DNA from: a virus
Strand: one strand, 5' to 3'
Virus genome (UHGV): UHGV-0209075
Length of the DNA: 41,775 nt
Part shown: positions 3,236-7,123 of the stretch, in pieces
Layout of the letters: each line of letters begins with the position of its first letter
Position numbering within the stretch: position 1 is the first letter of the stretch
Notes under the pieces: generated by a model
What the model saw: the letters and a program-made list of their open reading frames with translations, nothing else
Database searches by the model: none
What the model was told of the DNA's origin: nothing
Program-made: the position numbers and the translations under genes

Positions 3236-3631
3236 ATGGATTTTGCAACTATCACAAGTAGCGTTGTGTTGAGTGCATGTGTTGCTGGCGTGGTTTCGCT
3301 GGTTAATGGTGCCTGGCAACGCAAATCGGAACGAACCATTGAAGCGCAACGCCGGGCTGCTGAAGCCAGGGCTAAAATAAGAGAAATGGCTCTCACCCTC
3401 GCATTGAAAGAATGGGAACTTCACCAAACCATATCGAAGACAAAGGGATATGGTGTCAGCGGCCCGGAAGTTTACGTCTTTCGATACTTTCGTATGCTCA
3501 ACCTGATGGAAGAAGACAAATTCACGATTGAAAATCTCAGACTGATCCAGCACGACTCCATGTGCGCCGTCGCAGCGATTCAGGCAGAGATCGAGCGATA
3601 CCGGGAGAAAAACGGCCTCCCGATGCCATAA
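3236..3631 (+). CDS. membrane-anchored protein of unknown function (cargo gene antisense to the replication operon)
   Basis: ATG 3236 preceded by AGAGGAGG (6-nt spacer) and a TATAAT hexamer at 3191-3196; residues ~5-24 hydrophobic helix, then Arg/Glu-rich helix and ~70-aa C-terminal domain. Confidence 0.6.
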   Translation: MDFATITSSVVLSACVAGVVSLVNGAWQRKSERTIEAQRRAAEARAKIREMALTLALKEWELHQTISKTKGYGVSGPEVYVFRYFRMLNLMEEDKFTIENLRLIQHDSMCAVAAIQAEIERYREKNGLPMP

Positions 3632-3635
3632 GCAA

Positions 3636-3836
3636 TCAGTGTTTTTCATCTTTCCAGATCCTCATATCAGGCTTTCGCCCGATGAACCGGCGAAAACAAT
3701 TTAAAATCCATCGGGTGAAGTAATCCCTGAAACCAAAGAGATACCAGGTGAACAGATTCACGATAAAATGTCCGGCCAGAGCCCCACCGATACCACAGGC
3801 AAGAACAGTAAAAAGATCATGTAGATTCACAGGCAT
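3636..3836 (-). CDS. small hydrophobic protein (66 aa, one predicted TM helix, basic C-terminus)
   Basis: ORF 31 nt downstream of cII-like stop, convergent with 3236-3631 (stop codons 4 nt apart); weak SD so coding status uncertain. Confidence 0.3.
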   Translation of the reverse strand: MPVNLHDLFTVLACGIGGALAGHFIVNLFTWYLFGFRDYFTRWILNCFRRFIGRKPDMRIWKDEKH

Positions 3837-3867: not shown

Positions 3868-4293
3868 TTAGTGCATCACCACGGCATTTCCCGCCGGACC
3901 ACCACGATTCATCTGATTGAAACCAGCGATCGCCACTGCAACAAAATCATCAGCGTCTCTCACCAGTCGTTCCCGCGTCTCCACCAGTTCCCGAAACCAG
4001 GCTGAACTGTGGCTGCGCATTCGGGCCACCAGCAGAGGCGGCATTGCTTTTTCGATCGCTGGTAACAACGCCTGAATTTTTTTAACCGCATCAGGGGTGT
4101 CTTTCTCCACCCAGCGGAAAATTTTCTGAGTATTGCGAGCCAGGGCTTCCGGATGGCTGTCGTCATACAGTTCCGGGAACGTCATTCCCAGCTCGAAATA
4201 CGCTTTGGTAATTTTCGCAGCCGGTACTTTTTCGCCGTCCGGATGCGCCCAGGCATTCATCGCCATGCGGATGTGTTCATGCTTGATTTTCAT
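3868..4293 (-). CDS. CII-position regulator, resembles YdaT-family proteins of Rac-like prophages
   Basis: 141-aa ORF translationally coupled to cro-like gene (start/stop overlap at 4290-4293); N-terminus MKIKHEHI; synteny. Confidence 0.5.
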   Translation of the reverse strand: MKIKHEHIRMAMNAWAHPDGEKVPAAKITKAYFELGMTFPELYDDSHPEALARNTQKIFRWVEKDTPDAVKKIQALLPAIEKAMPPLLVARMRSHSSAWFRELVETRERLVRDADDFVAVAIAGFNQMNRGGPAGNAVVMH

Positions 4294-4505
4294 GAATCAT
4301 TCTTTCCTTCGTTCGAGGTGCTATCCTGCTTCTTGTAAAGTTCTGGGTTGTATTTCAATTCACCGTTAGTAATTTCATCCAGTTCCATTGCGCGAAGTTT
4401 GGGAATAACTGCTTGCCACCGCACAACAGCCACATGTGAAATTCCAAGAGCCTCAGCTACTAGTCGCTTTTTTTTGAAATAGCGCAGAACATCATCTTTG
4501 AACAT
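4290..4505 (-). CDS. Cro-like HTH regulator (YdaS/Cro type)
   Basis: 71-aa ORF divergent from repressor; HTH segment KKRLVAEALGISHVAVVRWQ; AGGAGA SD 5 nt upstream of ATG 4505. Confidence 0.7.
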   Translation of the reverse strand: MFKDDVLRYFKKKRLVAEALGISHVAVVRWQAVIPKLRAMELDEITNGELKYNPELYKKQDSTSNEGKNDS

Positions 4506-4534
4506 AAAACTCTCCTGTTATTTCGAGCAGGAGG

Positions 4535-4596
4535 GTAACAATAGTTACATAGCAATGTCAACCATAGCAACATCACTTGGTAGTAACATTGGTTAC
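4535..4596. promoter_or_regulatory. OR-like operator region: two 14-bp dyads GTAAC-N4-GTTAC (4535-4548, 4583-4596) in the repressor/cro intergenic region
   Basis: GTAACAATAGTTAC and GTAACATTGGTTAC, centre-to-centre 48 bp; the second abuts the repressor ATG at 4597. Confidence 0.5.
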
Positions 4597-5271
4597 ATGA
4601 AAAACACTATCAGCGAACGTATTCGGAATCGTCGAAAAGACGTTGGATTAACCCAACAGCAGGTTGCGAAAGCAATCGGCATATCTCGTGTATCCGTAAC
4701 AAAATGGGAAAATGGCTCTTCAAAACCTGACGGTGAGAATTTGCATCTACTGTCAAAATTGCTTTCCAAATCTCCTGAATGGATTCTTTATGGAAAGGAC
4801 GGTCACGATAAAACCGATGATCTGCGTCTGAATCAGTATCTTTACATTAGTGACAACATCGCCCGGTTGCCCGTTTTAACGTGGGAACAGGCTGGTTATT
4901 GGGATATGAGTTGTCCAGTAACCGAGATTCCTGGCATTAAGAATTGGGTTGATGTCATGACAAAAACCGCTGAAAACTCTTTTTTATTGCATGTTGAGGG
5001 AGATGCGATGACAAACTCTAACGGCCTCCCAACCATCCCCGATGGATCTACCGTGCTGATCACACCATGCTCAAGTAACATTAGAGAACTGGTGGGAAAA
5101 ATAATCTTAATCCAATTGGAAGGAACGCCAAACGTAACACTAAAAAAAGTTGCGATTGACGGACCAAACATCTATCTGTTGTCACTGAATCCGCTTTACA
5201 AACCCATCGAACTGAATGGTGGTTACACCATTAAAGGTAAAGTTTCACAAATACATCAATACTTAGACTGA
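4597..5271 (+). CDS. cI: CI-type repressor (HTH_XRE N-domain + LexA/S24-like C-domain) with Ala at the nucleophile position (GDAM instead of GDSM)
   Basis: HTH LTQQQVAKAIGISRVSVTKWENG; C-domain motifs HVEGDAMTNSNG and VTLKKV align by eye with lambda CI EVEGNSM / FTFKKL; start taken at ATG 4597 (ORF-track ORF begins at TTG 4498). Confidence 0.8.
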   Translation: MKNTISERIRNRRKDVGLTQQQVAKAIGISRVSVTKWENGSSKPDGENLHLLSKLLSKSPEWILYGKDGHDKTDDLRLNQYLYISDNIARLPVLTWEQAGYWDMSCPVTEIPGIKNWVDVMTKTAENSFLLHVEGDAMTNSNGLPTIPDGSTVLITPCSSNIRELVGKIILIQLEGTPNVTLKKVAIDGPNIYLLSLNPLYKPIELNGGYTIKGKVSQIHQYLD

Positions 5272-5277
5272 GTCAGA

Positions 5278-5300
5278 ACCCGCATTCATTGCGGGTTTTT
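5278..5300 (+). terminator. rho-independent terminator after repressor gene
   Basis: ACCCGCA-ttcat-TGCGGGT stem followed by TTTTT, 7 nt after the repressor stop. Confidence 0.65.
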
Positions 5301-5333
5301 CACGCTCTCAAATGTACCTTTTGCAACATCGTA

Positions 5334-5362
5334 TTGACTCGAAAGGTAACTCTTGTTACCTT
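5334..5362 (+). promoter_or_regulatory. candidate PL-like promoter with a third operator dyad in the spacer
   Basis: TTGACT (5334-5339), 17-bp spacer containing GTAACTCTTGTTAC (5346-5359), then TACCTT; same dyad as the two OR-like operators. Confidence 0.35.
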
Positions 5363-5682
5363 AACGGCATACCAACCCACCCCGCCCCACAGAATGCAGG
5401 GCAATACTTCGAGTTACCAGGCAGTGGTCAGGGGTTAAGTAGCCAGCCCGAGGCGTAAGAACATGACGGCAGGGTTCAACTTTAATAACTATGCAGCAGG
5501 TTTTTGTTCCGCTACCCCGGCGTTAAGGGGAAACAGAGGATTTCTCAGTGGGCGAAGTCAAACATCAGAATGGAAGGCATCCCGGGATCGGCAAAGAAGC
5601 AGCAATGGCGCTTTATATTGACATCAGCGCCATTGCCGGACAGGTAAGAATTATCAGAGCGGTAACTAAGCGGTATGCGCCT

Positions 5683-5883
5683 TTACTTCAGAAAGTCTCT
5701 GGTGAGTGCACCGAAGATATTGTCAACGATTTCGTCATCGAACTGCGAGGACTCATCTTCAGTTACAAGGTGACCACAATTTTTGCAGATGGCTCCCGCG
5801 AAACTGTCAGAGCCCTGCGGCTTAAAGGATGTGTCAAAGACTTCGCCACCACATTCTGGGCAAGAAAACTTGATTGTACTCAT
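5683..5883 (-). CDS. small zinc-ribbon protein (CPECGG...CKNCGH), acidic C-terminus; function unknown
   Basis: 66-aa ORF from ATG 5883 preceded by AGAGGA (8-nt spacer); two CxxCG pairs; a 9-bp-stem hairpin (about 5603-5634) lies downstream; convergent with repressor. Confidence 0.5.
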   Translation of the reverse strand: MSTIKFSCPECGGEVFDTSFKPQGSDSFAGAICKNCGHLVTEDESSQFDDEIVDNIFGALTRDFLK

Positions 5884-5975
5884 AACCAATTTCCTCTCGA
5901 GTAACAGACCCCTCAGAGGATACCACCTCGCCTGACGTGGTTAAAAGCAGGCAACGCTAACCACAAGGAGCCGAC

Positions 5976-6194
5976 ATGCAGAAACGAGAACCCGTCATCA
6001 TCGCGCCAGACTATACCGATGATGAACTTTATGAGTGGATGCGCCAGAAAATTAATGCAGCGCAGGATCTGAAATGGGCCAATGAAGCCAAGGCTAAGCA
6101 GGCTGAAAATCTGTCCGCTCTGGAGCAGGATATCACCAGGCTGGAAAAAGCAGCGGCATTAAGCATTGCCAGAATGATTACATACCAGCGTTAA
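5976..6194 (+). CDS. small coiled-coil protein (72 aa); function unknown
   Basis: ATG 5976 preceded by AAGGAG (5-nt spacer); divergent from zinc-ribbon gene with 92-bp intergenic region. Confidence 0.5.
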   Translation: MQKREPVIIAPDYTDDELYEWMRQKINAAQDLKWANEAKAKQAENLSALEQDITRLEKAAALSIARMITYQR

Positions 6195-6200
6195 TAGCTA

Positions 6201-6283
6201 ACCAACGAAGCTAAGGTTGGTAATTAAGGAGTTCTCCACGGGTGAAGTGGAGTGCGTGCGCCGGACACGGGTGAACATCCGGC
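6201..6283 (+). other. three tandem stem-loops; the second and third share the motif CACGGGTGAA
   Basis: ACCAAC/GTTGGT (6201-6221), CTCCAC/GTGGAG (6234-6252), GCCGGA/TCCGGC (6260-6283); 10-mer CACGGGTGAA at 6237-6246 and 6266-6275; no U-tracts. Confidence 0.4.
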
Positions 6284-6578
6284 ACTGACAGTTTACTGAA
6301 AGGATATTTCTCTGAAAAGTCAGAGCATAACGCGAAAGCACACGGAGAAGCTCGTCTCTCTGTACTTTGTCGTTAAATTTAATTCGACCGTGCGCTTCCG
6401 GTTGTGGCAATCCGCGAAATGGCGCGGCGGTAAGTATGGCGGGGTTATTCCTTCCCCTTGAGGACACCGGGTTGTCAGGCTGACCATACGCTTAAGTGAC
6501 AGCCACGCCACAATATCCATGTGTAGTCTTTGGTGGCATCAGTTCTACTCCGTGACTGCTCTGCCGCCCTTTTTAAAG

Positions 6579-6732
6579 TGAATTTTGTGATGCGGTGAAT
6601 GCGGCTCAGCGCACGCGGAACAGTTAAAACAAGCGGTCTTTTACGGGCGTAACGGGAATGCTCTGTATCCGGCGTTAATTGTTAACTGGTTAACGTCACC
6701 TGGAGGCACCAGGCACCGCATCACAAAATTCA
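6579..6732. repeat. 154-bp element bounded by a perfect 19-bp inverted repeat (TGAATTTTGTGATGCGGTG / CACCGCATCACAAAATTCA)
   Basis: Arms at 6579-6597 and 6714-6732 are exact reverse complements; right arm ends 5 nt before the GAGGA SD of the 6750 ORF; interior contains GTTAACTGGTTAAC and CCTGGAGGCACCAGG palindromes. Confidence 0.6.
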
Positions 6733-6749
6733 TTGTTGAGGACGCGATA

Positions 6750-6938
6750 ATGGAAACGTTATTACCAAACGTTAATACGTCTGAAGGTTGTTTTGATATT
6801 GGTGTTCTGCTCAGTAACCGGGAGTTTACGGAAGATGCCATTAAGATGAGAAAATATGAACCTTATCTTCTCAATGATAATTCCATACTTTCCAGAATTG
6901 CCCTTCTTGAACTTGGTATTATCGGAGAACAGCAGTGA
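6750..6938 (+). CDS. small protein (62 aa), AT-rich cargo gene; function unknown
   Basis: ATG 6750 preceded by GAGGA (7-nt spacer); lower GC than neighbours. Confidence 0.4.
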   Translation: METLLPNVNTSEGCFDIGVLLSNREFTEDAIKMRKYEPYLLNDNSILSRIALLELGIIGEQQ

Positions 6939-7123
6939 CTTCAGCATTTGCGCTGGTGATGACCGTTTTTCTTATAACGGGTGAGCCACAAAATGTGATT
7001 ACCGGAATTTATGACAGTAAGTCATCCTGCATTCAGGTAAGGGACGAACAAAAAATCCCCGGTGAATGCCTCCCGTTAAAAAAAGTATCGCTGAACCTGA
7101 ATAACGAAATACCGGCTGGATAA
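6935..7123 (+). CDS. small protein (62 aa) with N-terminal hydrophobic segment and two Cys; function unknown
   Basis: GTG 6935 overlaps the upstream stop (GTGA) and is preceded by GGAG (7-nt spacer), indicating translational coupling. Confidence 0.4.
   Translation: MTSAFALVMTVFLITGEPQNVITGIYDSKSSCIQVRDEQKIPGECLPLKKVSLNLNNEIPAG

Follow-up and report, generated by a model that had tools for sequence, protein, structure and literature searches.

Which strand is translated between positions 5548 and 5904 of UHGV-0209075, a viral genome of 41,775 nucleotides (hereafter, the window)? There, a gene for a 66-residue zinc-ribbon protein on the minus strand is fully covered by a 118-codon open reading frame (ORF) on the plus strand, and a third small ORF, for a 72-residue coiled-coil protein, follows on the plus strand. 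An earlier interpretation made from the letters alone (the sequence-only reading) had left the choice of strand undecided and had taken the zinc-ribbon and coiled-coil proteins for cargo in the rex position downstream of cI; the three ORFs are all found where it placed them and as it described them. The answer to which our comparison points is that both strands are most likely translated: as judged from substitution patterns, both frames are kept in many Enterobacterales prophages. We propose, with a probability of about 0.6, that a mobile cassette of ~370 bp which replaces ydfA-ydfB encodes two proteins on opposite strands in exact register, forming an antisense pair in which one product belongs to the lysogenic and the other to the lytic state. 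The features on which this proposal is built are:

5683-5883, minus strand: the zinc-ribbon gene, 66 amino acids (MSTIKFSCPECGG...CKNCGH...), with two CxxCG pairs, CPEC...CKNC being followed by an acidic C-terminal half; ECs_2282 family.
5890-5898, minus strand: Shine-Dalgarno sequence of the zinc-ribbon gene, GAGAGGAAA, 6 nt before the ATG, as read from the sequence.
5548-5904, plus strand: the plus ORF, 118 amino acids from GTG 5548 or 99 amino acids from ATG 5605, with GAGGA upstream; PHROG 21318.
5605-5682, plus strand: region A, the 26 plus-ORF codons outside the zinc-ribbon gene (MALYIDISAIAGQVRIIRAVTKRYAP).
5976-6194, plus strand: ydfC, 72 amino acids, with AAGGAG at 5965-5970; matches phrog_1744 (E=1e-38) and is labelled YdfC by the NCBI Prokaryotic Genome Annotation Pipeline (PGAP).
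5534-5975: the exchangeable cassette, which replaces ydfA-ydfB between the conserved operon leader (to 5533) and ydfC.

Both 5548 and 5605 are candidates for the true start of the plus ORF. The N-terminal extension from GTG 5548 is open but diverges quickly among E. coli variants (P0018-P0025), and in some E. coli copies (P0013) an upstream 52-residue leader ORF (MTAGFNFNNY..., window 5463-5621, plus strand) is fused to the plus ORF to give 146 amino acids. For the zinc-ribbon gene, the ORF listing contains an alternative TTG start at 5889, which would yield 68 amino acids.

The overlapping frames are in exact codon register, plus codon 5881-5883 being the reverse complement of the zinc-ribbon ATG. 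Of the antisense frames, the in-register one stays open by chance most readily: antisense stops then arise solely from the sense codons TTA, CTA and TCA, and a single open antisense frame is therefore unsurprising (for this 66-codon gene its chance, calculated from leucine and serine content, is ~0.22). Thus, the open antisense frame is unremarkable in the window alone; what is remarkable is its persistence in relatives.

Relatives were compared as more than 85 haplotypes in three clades, together with single loci from six further lineages. For clade E, to which the window belongs, 170 loci were extracted, many of the contigs having been fetched in two scans, and these comprise 99 distinct viral contigs and 43 usable haplotypes; scans of viral contigs provided 57 copies (26 haplotypes) of clade K1 and 22 copies (19 haplotypes) of clade K2. 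No relative was returned by a scan of the genome-contig collection, and scans of viral contigs with the divergent plus-ORF proteins P0039 and P0040 gave no match. One alignment, A5, was too diverse for pattern scanning.

Zinc-ribbon relatives with 60-71% identity reside in Citrobacter, Klebsiella and Enterobacter prophages; the antisense frame is open in every one of these loci and the plus ORF is intact. Homology between loci starts 78 nt beyond the zinc-ribbon stop, where the plus strand carries a Shine-Dalgarno sequence and an ATG, and ends about 75 nt upstream of the zinc-ribbon ATG; beyond these limits the flanks are unrelated, with ~70% of positions differing. Using tblastn, more distant zinc-ribbon homologues (29-34% identity) were found in Klebsiella and Enterobacter phages, where a coding sequence of 95-102 amino acids is annotated antisense in register. 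A search with the ECs_2282 family profile also reached Serratia, Cronobacter, Hafnia, Yersinia, Atlantibacter and Duffyella. The plus ORF is intact, with Shine-Dalgarno sequence and ATG, in Serratia sp., S. fonticola, Atlantibacter and one metagenomic contig. In Yersinia, it is cut to 34 amino acids because a zinc-ribbon leucine codon, CTA, reads TAG on the plus strand, and the zinc-ribbon protein is intact. In metagenomic contig L256, whose zinc ribbon is 42% identical to that of the window, the antisense frame is open and lacks the family motif; this contig ends 125 nt past the zinc-ribbon stop.

The orientation of the pair is fixed. Wherever a locus offered sufficient context, the plus ORF was read with the early operon and the zinc-ribbon gene against it, whether on the pL side, on the pR side or after N:

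Leading the operon, behind a repressor of cI or DicA type: the window, L005-L008, L011-L013, L174 and L257.
Immediately downstream of gene N: L258, L260 and L261.
Downstream of cro on the pR side: L009 and L010; in L010 the zinc-ribbon ATG is situated past the stop of the plus ORF.
After Rha and KilA: L175.

The zinc-ribbon protein scores 57.3 bits against the NCBIfam model of the ECs_2282 family, NF047912 (cut-off 37; E=1e-15; residues 4-59), and it has the family's two CxxC pairs ~21 residues apart and a length within the range of about 60-76 amino acids. That family is a name only, and nothing in it hints that its members lie antisense within a second conserved ORF. Cysteines C8, C11, C33 and C36 are invariant in alignment A6 and kept in 12 lineage representatives; among the remaining lineage sequences the sole exception is K1 haplotype L199, which has a serine at the last of them; start and stop are kept along with the four cysteines in A6 members only 29-30% identical to the window protein. 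Omega, estimated with a Poisson model on parsimony-mapped changes, is 0.38, 0.26 and 0.24 for the zinc-ribbon frame in the three clades (p from 5e-13 to 3e-9), and no K1 or K2 haplotype interrupts the frame. In a stratified test, changes that leave the plus protein unaltered and modify the zinc ribbon occur at 0.42 of the neutral rate (confidence interval 0.31-0.56; p=6e-9), with all six strata consistent. Also, plus-frame third positions are invariant at 28 of 65 codons in the overlap and at 3 of 26 outside it. From this substitution record, purifying selection on the zinc-ribbon frame is clear.

These patterns bear directly on whether the plus ORF could be the only gene, the zinc ribbon being a chance antisense ORF. 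In PHROGs and most GenBank phage records the plus ORF is the only one called, and its AlphaFold2 model is the better of the two; furthermore, a zinc-ribbon stop codon is present in 18 of the 99 clade E viral contigs and a plus-frame stop in none, the common stop allele (E14, GAA to TAA) changing the plus protein only from F to L. However, the depletion of zinc-ribbon-altering changes, the invariant third positions and the conserved cysteines, start and stop all speak against the zinc ribbon being a by-product, as do its own Shine-Dalgarno sequence and a promoter-like element whose conservation exceeds that of the coding sequence (see below). The substitution pattern already contradicts an explanation by the plus ORF alone, which we consider extremely improbable. 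On evolutionary evidence, translation appears not to be confined to the plus ORF, stronger constraint being seen on the minus frame. Loss of one gene does not require loss of the other: the clade E stop alleles show this in one direction and Yersinia in the other.

The evidence for the plus ORF comes firstly from region A, where it is free of the zinc-ribbon gene. In region A, third positions are variable at 23 of 26 codons; glycine is kept through four different codons and arginine through AGA, CGA and CGC. Omega is 0.41 in clade E (p=4e-7), 0.41 in K1 (p=0.001) and 0.50 in K2 (p=0.005). Between deep clades, nucleotide identity in this region is 31%, and the plus frame scores 31.1 against 15.6-21.2 in the other five frames, with a plus-frame motif, h-x-h-x-[ILV]-[DN]-x-[ST], being kept. 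Secondly, the plus frame avoids stops. Region A contains 0.12 stops per sequence in the plus frame compared with 0.9-4.0 in the other five, and across the three clades 15.5 plus-frame nonsense changes are expected if only the zinc ribbon is selected, whereas the sequences contain a single one, at the very C-terminus (P=3e-6; for K1 and K2, the expected numbers were calculated by hand from the clade counts). Of 12 lineage representatives, 11 have an uninterrupted plus frame, for which the chance in each lineage is 0.12-0.48. Finally, the protein matches phrog_21318 with E=1.9e-66, residues 1-99 aligning end to end with the 99 positions of the profile, its family comprises 8 clusters among 1.84 billion representatives in a full HMMER scan, and the best AlphaFold2 model, computed from only 12 sequences, is a compact alpha-alpha-beta-beta-alpha fold with a predicted local distance difference test (pLDDT) score of 76.7. 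The substitution data point clearly to selection on the plus protein over the N-terminal third that is free of overlap, and on the frame as a whole to remain uninterrupted.

Within the overlap the picture is less favourable, and here an explanation by the zinc ribbon alone must be weighed. It holds that only the zinc-ribbon gene is functional, and that the plus ORF is translated, or just kept open, so that ribosomes covering the initial few hundred bases of the early transcript prevent Rho-dependent polarity on ydfC-dicF-dicB, everything beyond a short N-terminal peptide being a mirror image of the zinc-ribbon sequence. Indeed, changes that are synonymous for the zinc ribbon and nonsynonymous for the plus ORF occur in the overlap at a rate ratio of 0.78 (confidence interval 0.60-1.01, p=0.056), a marginal depletion that is confined to transversions and to clades E and K2 and is missing from K1, where the ratio is 1.0. 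Pooled plus-frame omega values in the overlap, 0.57-0.70, were not taken at face value: they are biased downwards because second-position changes are radical in both frames, and the stratified test is the marginal one just given. The K1 sub-clades hardly differ from one another in the zinc-ribbon half but do differ at about a quarter of the plus residues that face it, so that the embedded gene appears to dominate the shared sequence. The short plus ORF of Yersinia fits the same explanation, as does the annotation of the minus gene alone by the curated NCBI family and PGAP. Against it stand the avoidance of plus-frame stops along the whole length and not just near the start, the compact fold predicted from so few sequences, and the N-terminal third, which is kept as protein between clades where the DNA has been randomised and has the low omega given above in all three clades; an anti-polarity spacer need not conserve its sequence. 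Taken together, we find this explanation rather unlikely.

Several points weigh against the two-protein proposal itself. Besides the marginal constraint in the overlap and its lack in K1, the sole reason for an open plus frame could be that it retains ribosomes on the leader. The substitution counts are parsimony counts over neighbour-joining trees of recombining prophage DNA. Zinc-ribbon nonsense alleles in E. coli number 4, compared with 4.1 expected without selection against them, and the AlphaFold2 model of the zinc-ribbon protein is poor (pLDDT 58), which is not usable for a fold search. A consensus promoter scan reported neither of the two promoter sites on which the regulatory side of the proposal depends (5334-5362 and 5917-5952, see below); since the scanner did not report them, both are given here as putative. 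No transcription or translation data for either strand were found, the supplementary tables of ribosome-profiling studies of enterohaemorrhagic E. coli not having been searched, and a full-text literature search for ECs2282 returned nothing. Searches of PHROGs, PADLOC and PDB sequences revealed no functional homologue of either protein.

The doubt over the strand is a real one, as existing annotation demonstrates. PGAP, following NCBIfam, calls the minus ORF ("ECs_2282 family putative zinc-binding protein") and leaves the plus ORF unannotated, whereas PHROGs and GenBank phage records of the Prokka/DFAST type call the plus ORF as coding sequence. At this locus, the two styles of annotation are mutually exclusive, and each is probably half right.

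What does the cassette replace? In E. coli genomes carrying ydfA-ydfB (K-12 type), a query spanning 5440-6200 matches in two pieces amounting to 42% of its length, with ydfA (DUF1391) and ydfB lying between the pieces, which we take to be 5440-5533 and 5976-6200. In the window, ydfA and ydfB are not encountered as first cistrons and the cassette is found in their place. Of 5,426 complete E. coli genomes, 922 contain a cassette-type match, defined as one covering at least 80% of the query; O157:H7 strains are among them. The plus ORF and YdfA, which occupies the same slot elsewhere, are unrelated as judged by hhalign (probability 0.1).

We then examined the setting of the cassette, which bears on the rex-like interpretation. 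The relevant features are:

4597-5271: cI-type repressor with HTH_3 and Peptidase_S24 domains.
5334-5362, plus strand: putative pL/dicBp-like early promoter (TTGACT, 17 nt, TACCTT), directly after the cI terminator.
5345-5360: perfect operator palindrome GGTAACTCTTGTTACC (GGTAAC-N4-GTTACC), overlapping the early promoter-like site.
4290-4505, minus strand: Cro/DicC-like protein.
3868-4293, minus strand: YdaT-like protein.
6518-6569, plus strand: the small RNA DicF (Rfam RF00039, 58.3 bits against a gathering score of 48, E=2e-11).
6750-6938, plus strand: dicB (Pfam DicB E=4e-38; NCBIfam CellDivInhibDicB, 111 bits).
6935-7123, plus strand: ydfD/DUF1482 (Pfam DUF1482 E=3e-15).

Downstream of ydfD, an exonuclease of 824 amino acids is encoded on the early-operon strand. 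Apart from two copies in the cI-cro intergenic region, at 4534-4549 and 4582-4597, the window contains no further close match to the palindrome, and the site at 5334-5362 appears by its sequence to be the oL/pL equivalent. Because operator and promoter-like site directly follow cI, the cassette lies inside the pL-equivalent dicBF early operon and not in the interval between cI and oL. In the Qin cryptic prophage, the dicBF operon consists of ydfABC-dicF-dicB-ydfDE under DicA, with dicBp as the counterpart of pL (PMC10448788). The window shares with it the order repressor, early promoter, small ORFs, ydfC, DicF, dicB, ydfD and exonuclease, and differs in carrying the two-strand cassette in place of ydfA and ydfB and a repressor of cI type, with a helix-turn-helix (HTH) and a Peptidase_S24 domain, instead of Qin's short DicA. 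Judged by this gene order, an early operon of the dicBF type, belonging to a lambdoid/Qin-like prophage, begins at this locus, and ydfC, dicF, dicB and ydfD are ordinary members of it.

Two elements of the sequence-only reading do not survive this comparison. Firstly, the cassette is not in the rex position, because the operator palindrome and promoter-like site stand between it and cI; like rexAB of lambda it is close to cI, but it lies beyond oL/pL and its zinc-ribbon gene is on the strand opposite cI. Secondly, the 72-residue coiled-coil protein is YdfC, a standard dicBF-operon product whose DNA is 97% identical to the copy of the K-12 lineage; since in most E. coli ydfC is present and the zinc ribbon is not, it is not the partner in a three-part module. 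What remains is the zinc-ribbon gene as separate cargo oriented towards cI, and the statement that its likeness to MqsA is one of pattern only. The MqsA/YgiT antitoxin has an N-terminal zinc ribbon with two CxxCG motifs, but the MqsA models TIGR03830 and PF15731 match only the HTH of the neighbouring cI and not the zinc-ribbon protein, which is without an HTH, has an acidic tail and has no MqsR-like gene next to it.

Could the zinc-ribbon and coiled-coil proteins nevertheless form a rex-like defence, antirepressor or toxin-antitoxin module? Exclusion genes are often prophage-expressed, and the zinc-ribbon gene, which faces cI, is placed for expression in the prophage. In our own reading, an acidic zinc ribbon facing a mildly basic partner loosely recalls toxin-antitoxin pairs. 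An analogue exists in Pseudomonas phage Fc02, discussed below. On the other side, not only does the operator place the cassette in the early operon rather than in a cI-rex unit, but ydfC also accompanies ydfA-ydfB in most genomes independently of the zinc ribbon. In searches of Pfam, NCBIfam and PADLOC, neither cassette protein showed homology to RexA, RexB or catalogued defence proteins, nor did any toxin or antitoxin family model match; Pfam yielded only sub-threshold zinc-ribbon noise and PADLOC no significant match (best E=0.002, an unnamed candidate). We consider such a module improbable. Among other candidates, T4 lysozyme matches in PDB sequence searches, which were otherwise without significant hits, were rejected as spurious, and a weak PHROG match to Lar-like restriction alleviation (E=0.008) was not credible. 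The putative role of the zinc-ribbon protein is most likely that of a small regulatory or exclusion-type binding protein.

The surroundings of the cassette in relatives present further genes. In L011 (4930-6084) and L262 (3233-4390), a protein of ~385 amino acids of the HSDR_N (restriction-endonuclease-like) type is encoded between repressor and cassette; this is true rex-position cargo, and it is missing from the window. In L012, an Enterobacter prophage, a SieB (superinfection exclusion) gene lies beside the cassette at 3323-3823, on the strand opposite the early operon like the zinc ribbon, and the cassette neighbourhood is one in which exclusion genes occur. Other observations concern the flanking genes. 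The cI-type repressor ORF is open from TTG 4498 (257 amino acids), the start that fits the HTH being ATG 4597 (224 amino acids); the extra 33 codons (4498-4597, plus strand) would overlap both oR-like operators. Directly after DicF, a sub-threshold match to Rfam STnc100 (6567-6782, plus strand; 37.7 bits against a gathering score of 47, E=8e-6) reaches the dicB start. Between ydfC and dicF, where the window has an 89-codon minus-strand ORF (6198-6467), PGAP annotates in a related genome a minus-strand hypothetical protein, WP_032147075.1 (L003 4759-5052 and 5443-5736), a second gene call antisense to the early operon. L003 (E. coli FY26) contains a tandem duplication at 4759-6195, in which a partial dicB and the minus-strand hypothetical ORF each occur twice before the complete dicB.

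Upstream of the zinc-ribbon gene there is one further feature:

5917-5952, minus strand: putative promoter-like element, with -35 TTAACC (5939-5944), a 16-nt spacer and an extended -10 TGGTATCCT (5917-5925).

The element contains the inverted repeats GCCTG..CAGGC and CCAC-N10-GTGG. As a conserved stretch of 35-40 nt, GCCTGtCTTTTcACCACaTCAGGCtcGGTGGTATC, which reads -35 TT(A/C)ACC, 16-nt spacer and extended -10 TGGTATC, it is found upstream of the zinc ribbon in the pL-side E lineages and in the main K1 group (E. coli, Citrobacter, Klebsiella and Enterobacter), although the proteins of these two share no more than ~29% identity. A hairpin showing some compensatory changes follows the element. 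The divergent K1 sub-clade, the pR-side loci L009 and L010, S. fonticola, Atlantibacter and Yersinia have a different upstream sequence. In most lineages, one K1 variant being without it, a Shine-Dalgarno-like purine motif (GGAGG, AAGGA or AGGAA) precedes the ATG amid flanks that are otherwise unrelated. In the E. coli type (5890-5925, minus strand), the 5' arm CCTCT after the -10 can pair with AGAGG of the Shine-Dalgarno sequence, and the ribosome-binding site would then be occluded; in other lineages, a CTTGG...CCAAG or GCTGG...CCAGC hairpin ends beside the Shine-Dalgarno sequence. The 37-nt core of the element (5918-5952) also occurs alone, at 97-100% identity, in other E. coli genomes; in L173 (2501-2537), the one such locus inspected, it is flanked by a truncated ydfB and by dicB, and both the zinc ribbon and ydfC are missing from the vicinity. 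Such free-standing copies may be recombination scars or independent regulatory or RNA elements.

A mechanism can be proposed from the fixed orientation: we infer that the zinc ribbon is expressed from its own promoter during repression of the early operon. The cassette would have two products: a 99-118-residue alpha/beta protein (PHROG 21318) read with the operon from its own Shine-Dalgarno sequence, and a 66-residue acidic zinc-ribbon protein read against the operon, with its own Shine-Dalgarno sequence, a 5' hairpin and a sigma-70-like promoter element. In the lysogen, the early promoter being repressed, only the zinc-ribbon gene would be transcribed, as a prophage-expressed accessory gene. 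Upon induction, early transcription would run head-on through the zinc-ribbon gene and yield the plus-strand protein, silencing the opposing gene through transcriptional interference and through duplex formation between the fully complementary mRNAs. Each product would thus be confined to a state in which the other is not made. More tentatively, and as a possibility we would not favour at present, the pair may be an ancient two-strand unit, conserved in codon register throughout Enterobacterales prophages, that acts as a self-contained lysogeny/lytic switch, each mRNA silencing the other and the products having opposed or complementary functions (e.g. exclusion versus host takeover).

Known systems offer partial parallels. 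In Pseudomonas phage Fc02, the olg1/gene 10 pair combines an early-operon gene with an antisense, lysogen-expressed gene, and both exclude superinfecting phages (PMC9936078). Compared by arrangement and not by sequence, the cassette resembles it in being an antisense-overlapping pair beside an immunity region, with one partner read from the strand that is expressed in the lysogen and the other belonging to the early lytic operon. The lysogen-side gene of Fc02 is co-transcribed with the repressor, whereas that of the cassette converges on the repressor gene and is preceded by a separate promoter-like element; for Fc02, exclusion was demonstrated by experiment, while our pair is known from sequence alone. 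In E. coli O157:H7, antisense overlapping genes such as laoB, ano, asa and others have been described (PMC5810103, PMC5960689, PMC6294744, PMC9927249), laoB being presented in the title of its report as having arisen by overprinting. These resemble the cassette pair in that a coding ORF is embedded antisense in another E. coli gene. Such O157:H7 genes are mostly young and narrowly distributed, and are supported mainly by expression data. In the cassette, in contrast, both frames are conserved across Enterobacterales, the embedded gene is the better conserved one, and the evidence is comparative.

In bacteria, few antisense protein-coding pairs that are fully nested are known, and they are often disputed, since for most of them there are expression data but no evolutionary support. 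The cassette presents the reverse case, both frames being kept across at least 9 diverged prophage lineages. The antiparallel nested pair is unusual in the deep conservation of both frames and in its fixed orientation against prophage early operons. As both frames are conserved and natural knock-out alleles spare the partner, dual coding is directly testable. For the host, it matters that the cassette heads the operon for DicF and DicB: a head-on promoter at this position could affect leaky or induced expression of these cell-division inhibitors, for which a published cell-division screen covers the ydfA-type locus only. If the cassette does act as a switch, it would be among the best comparative cases of a long-lived, fully nested antisense coding pair in bacteria and phages.

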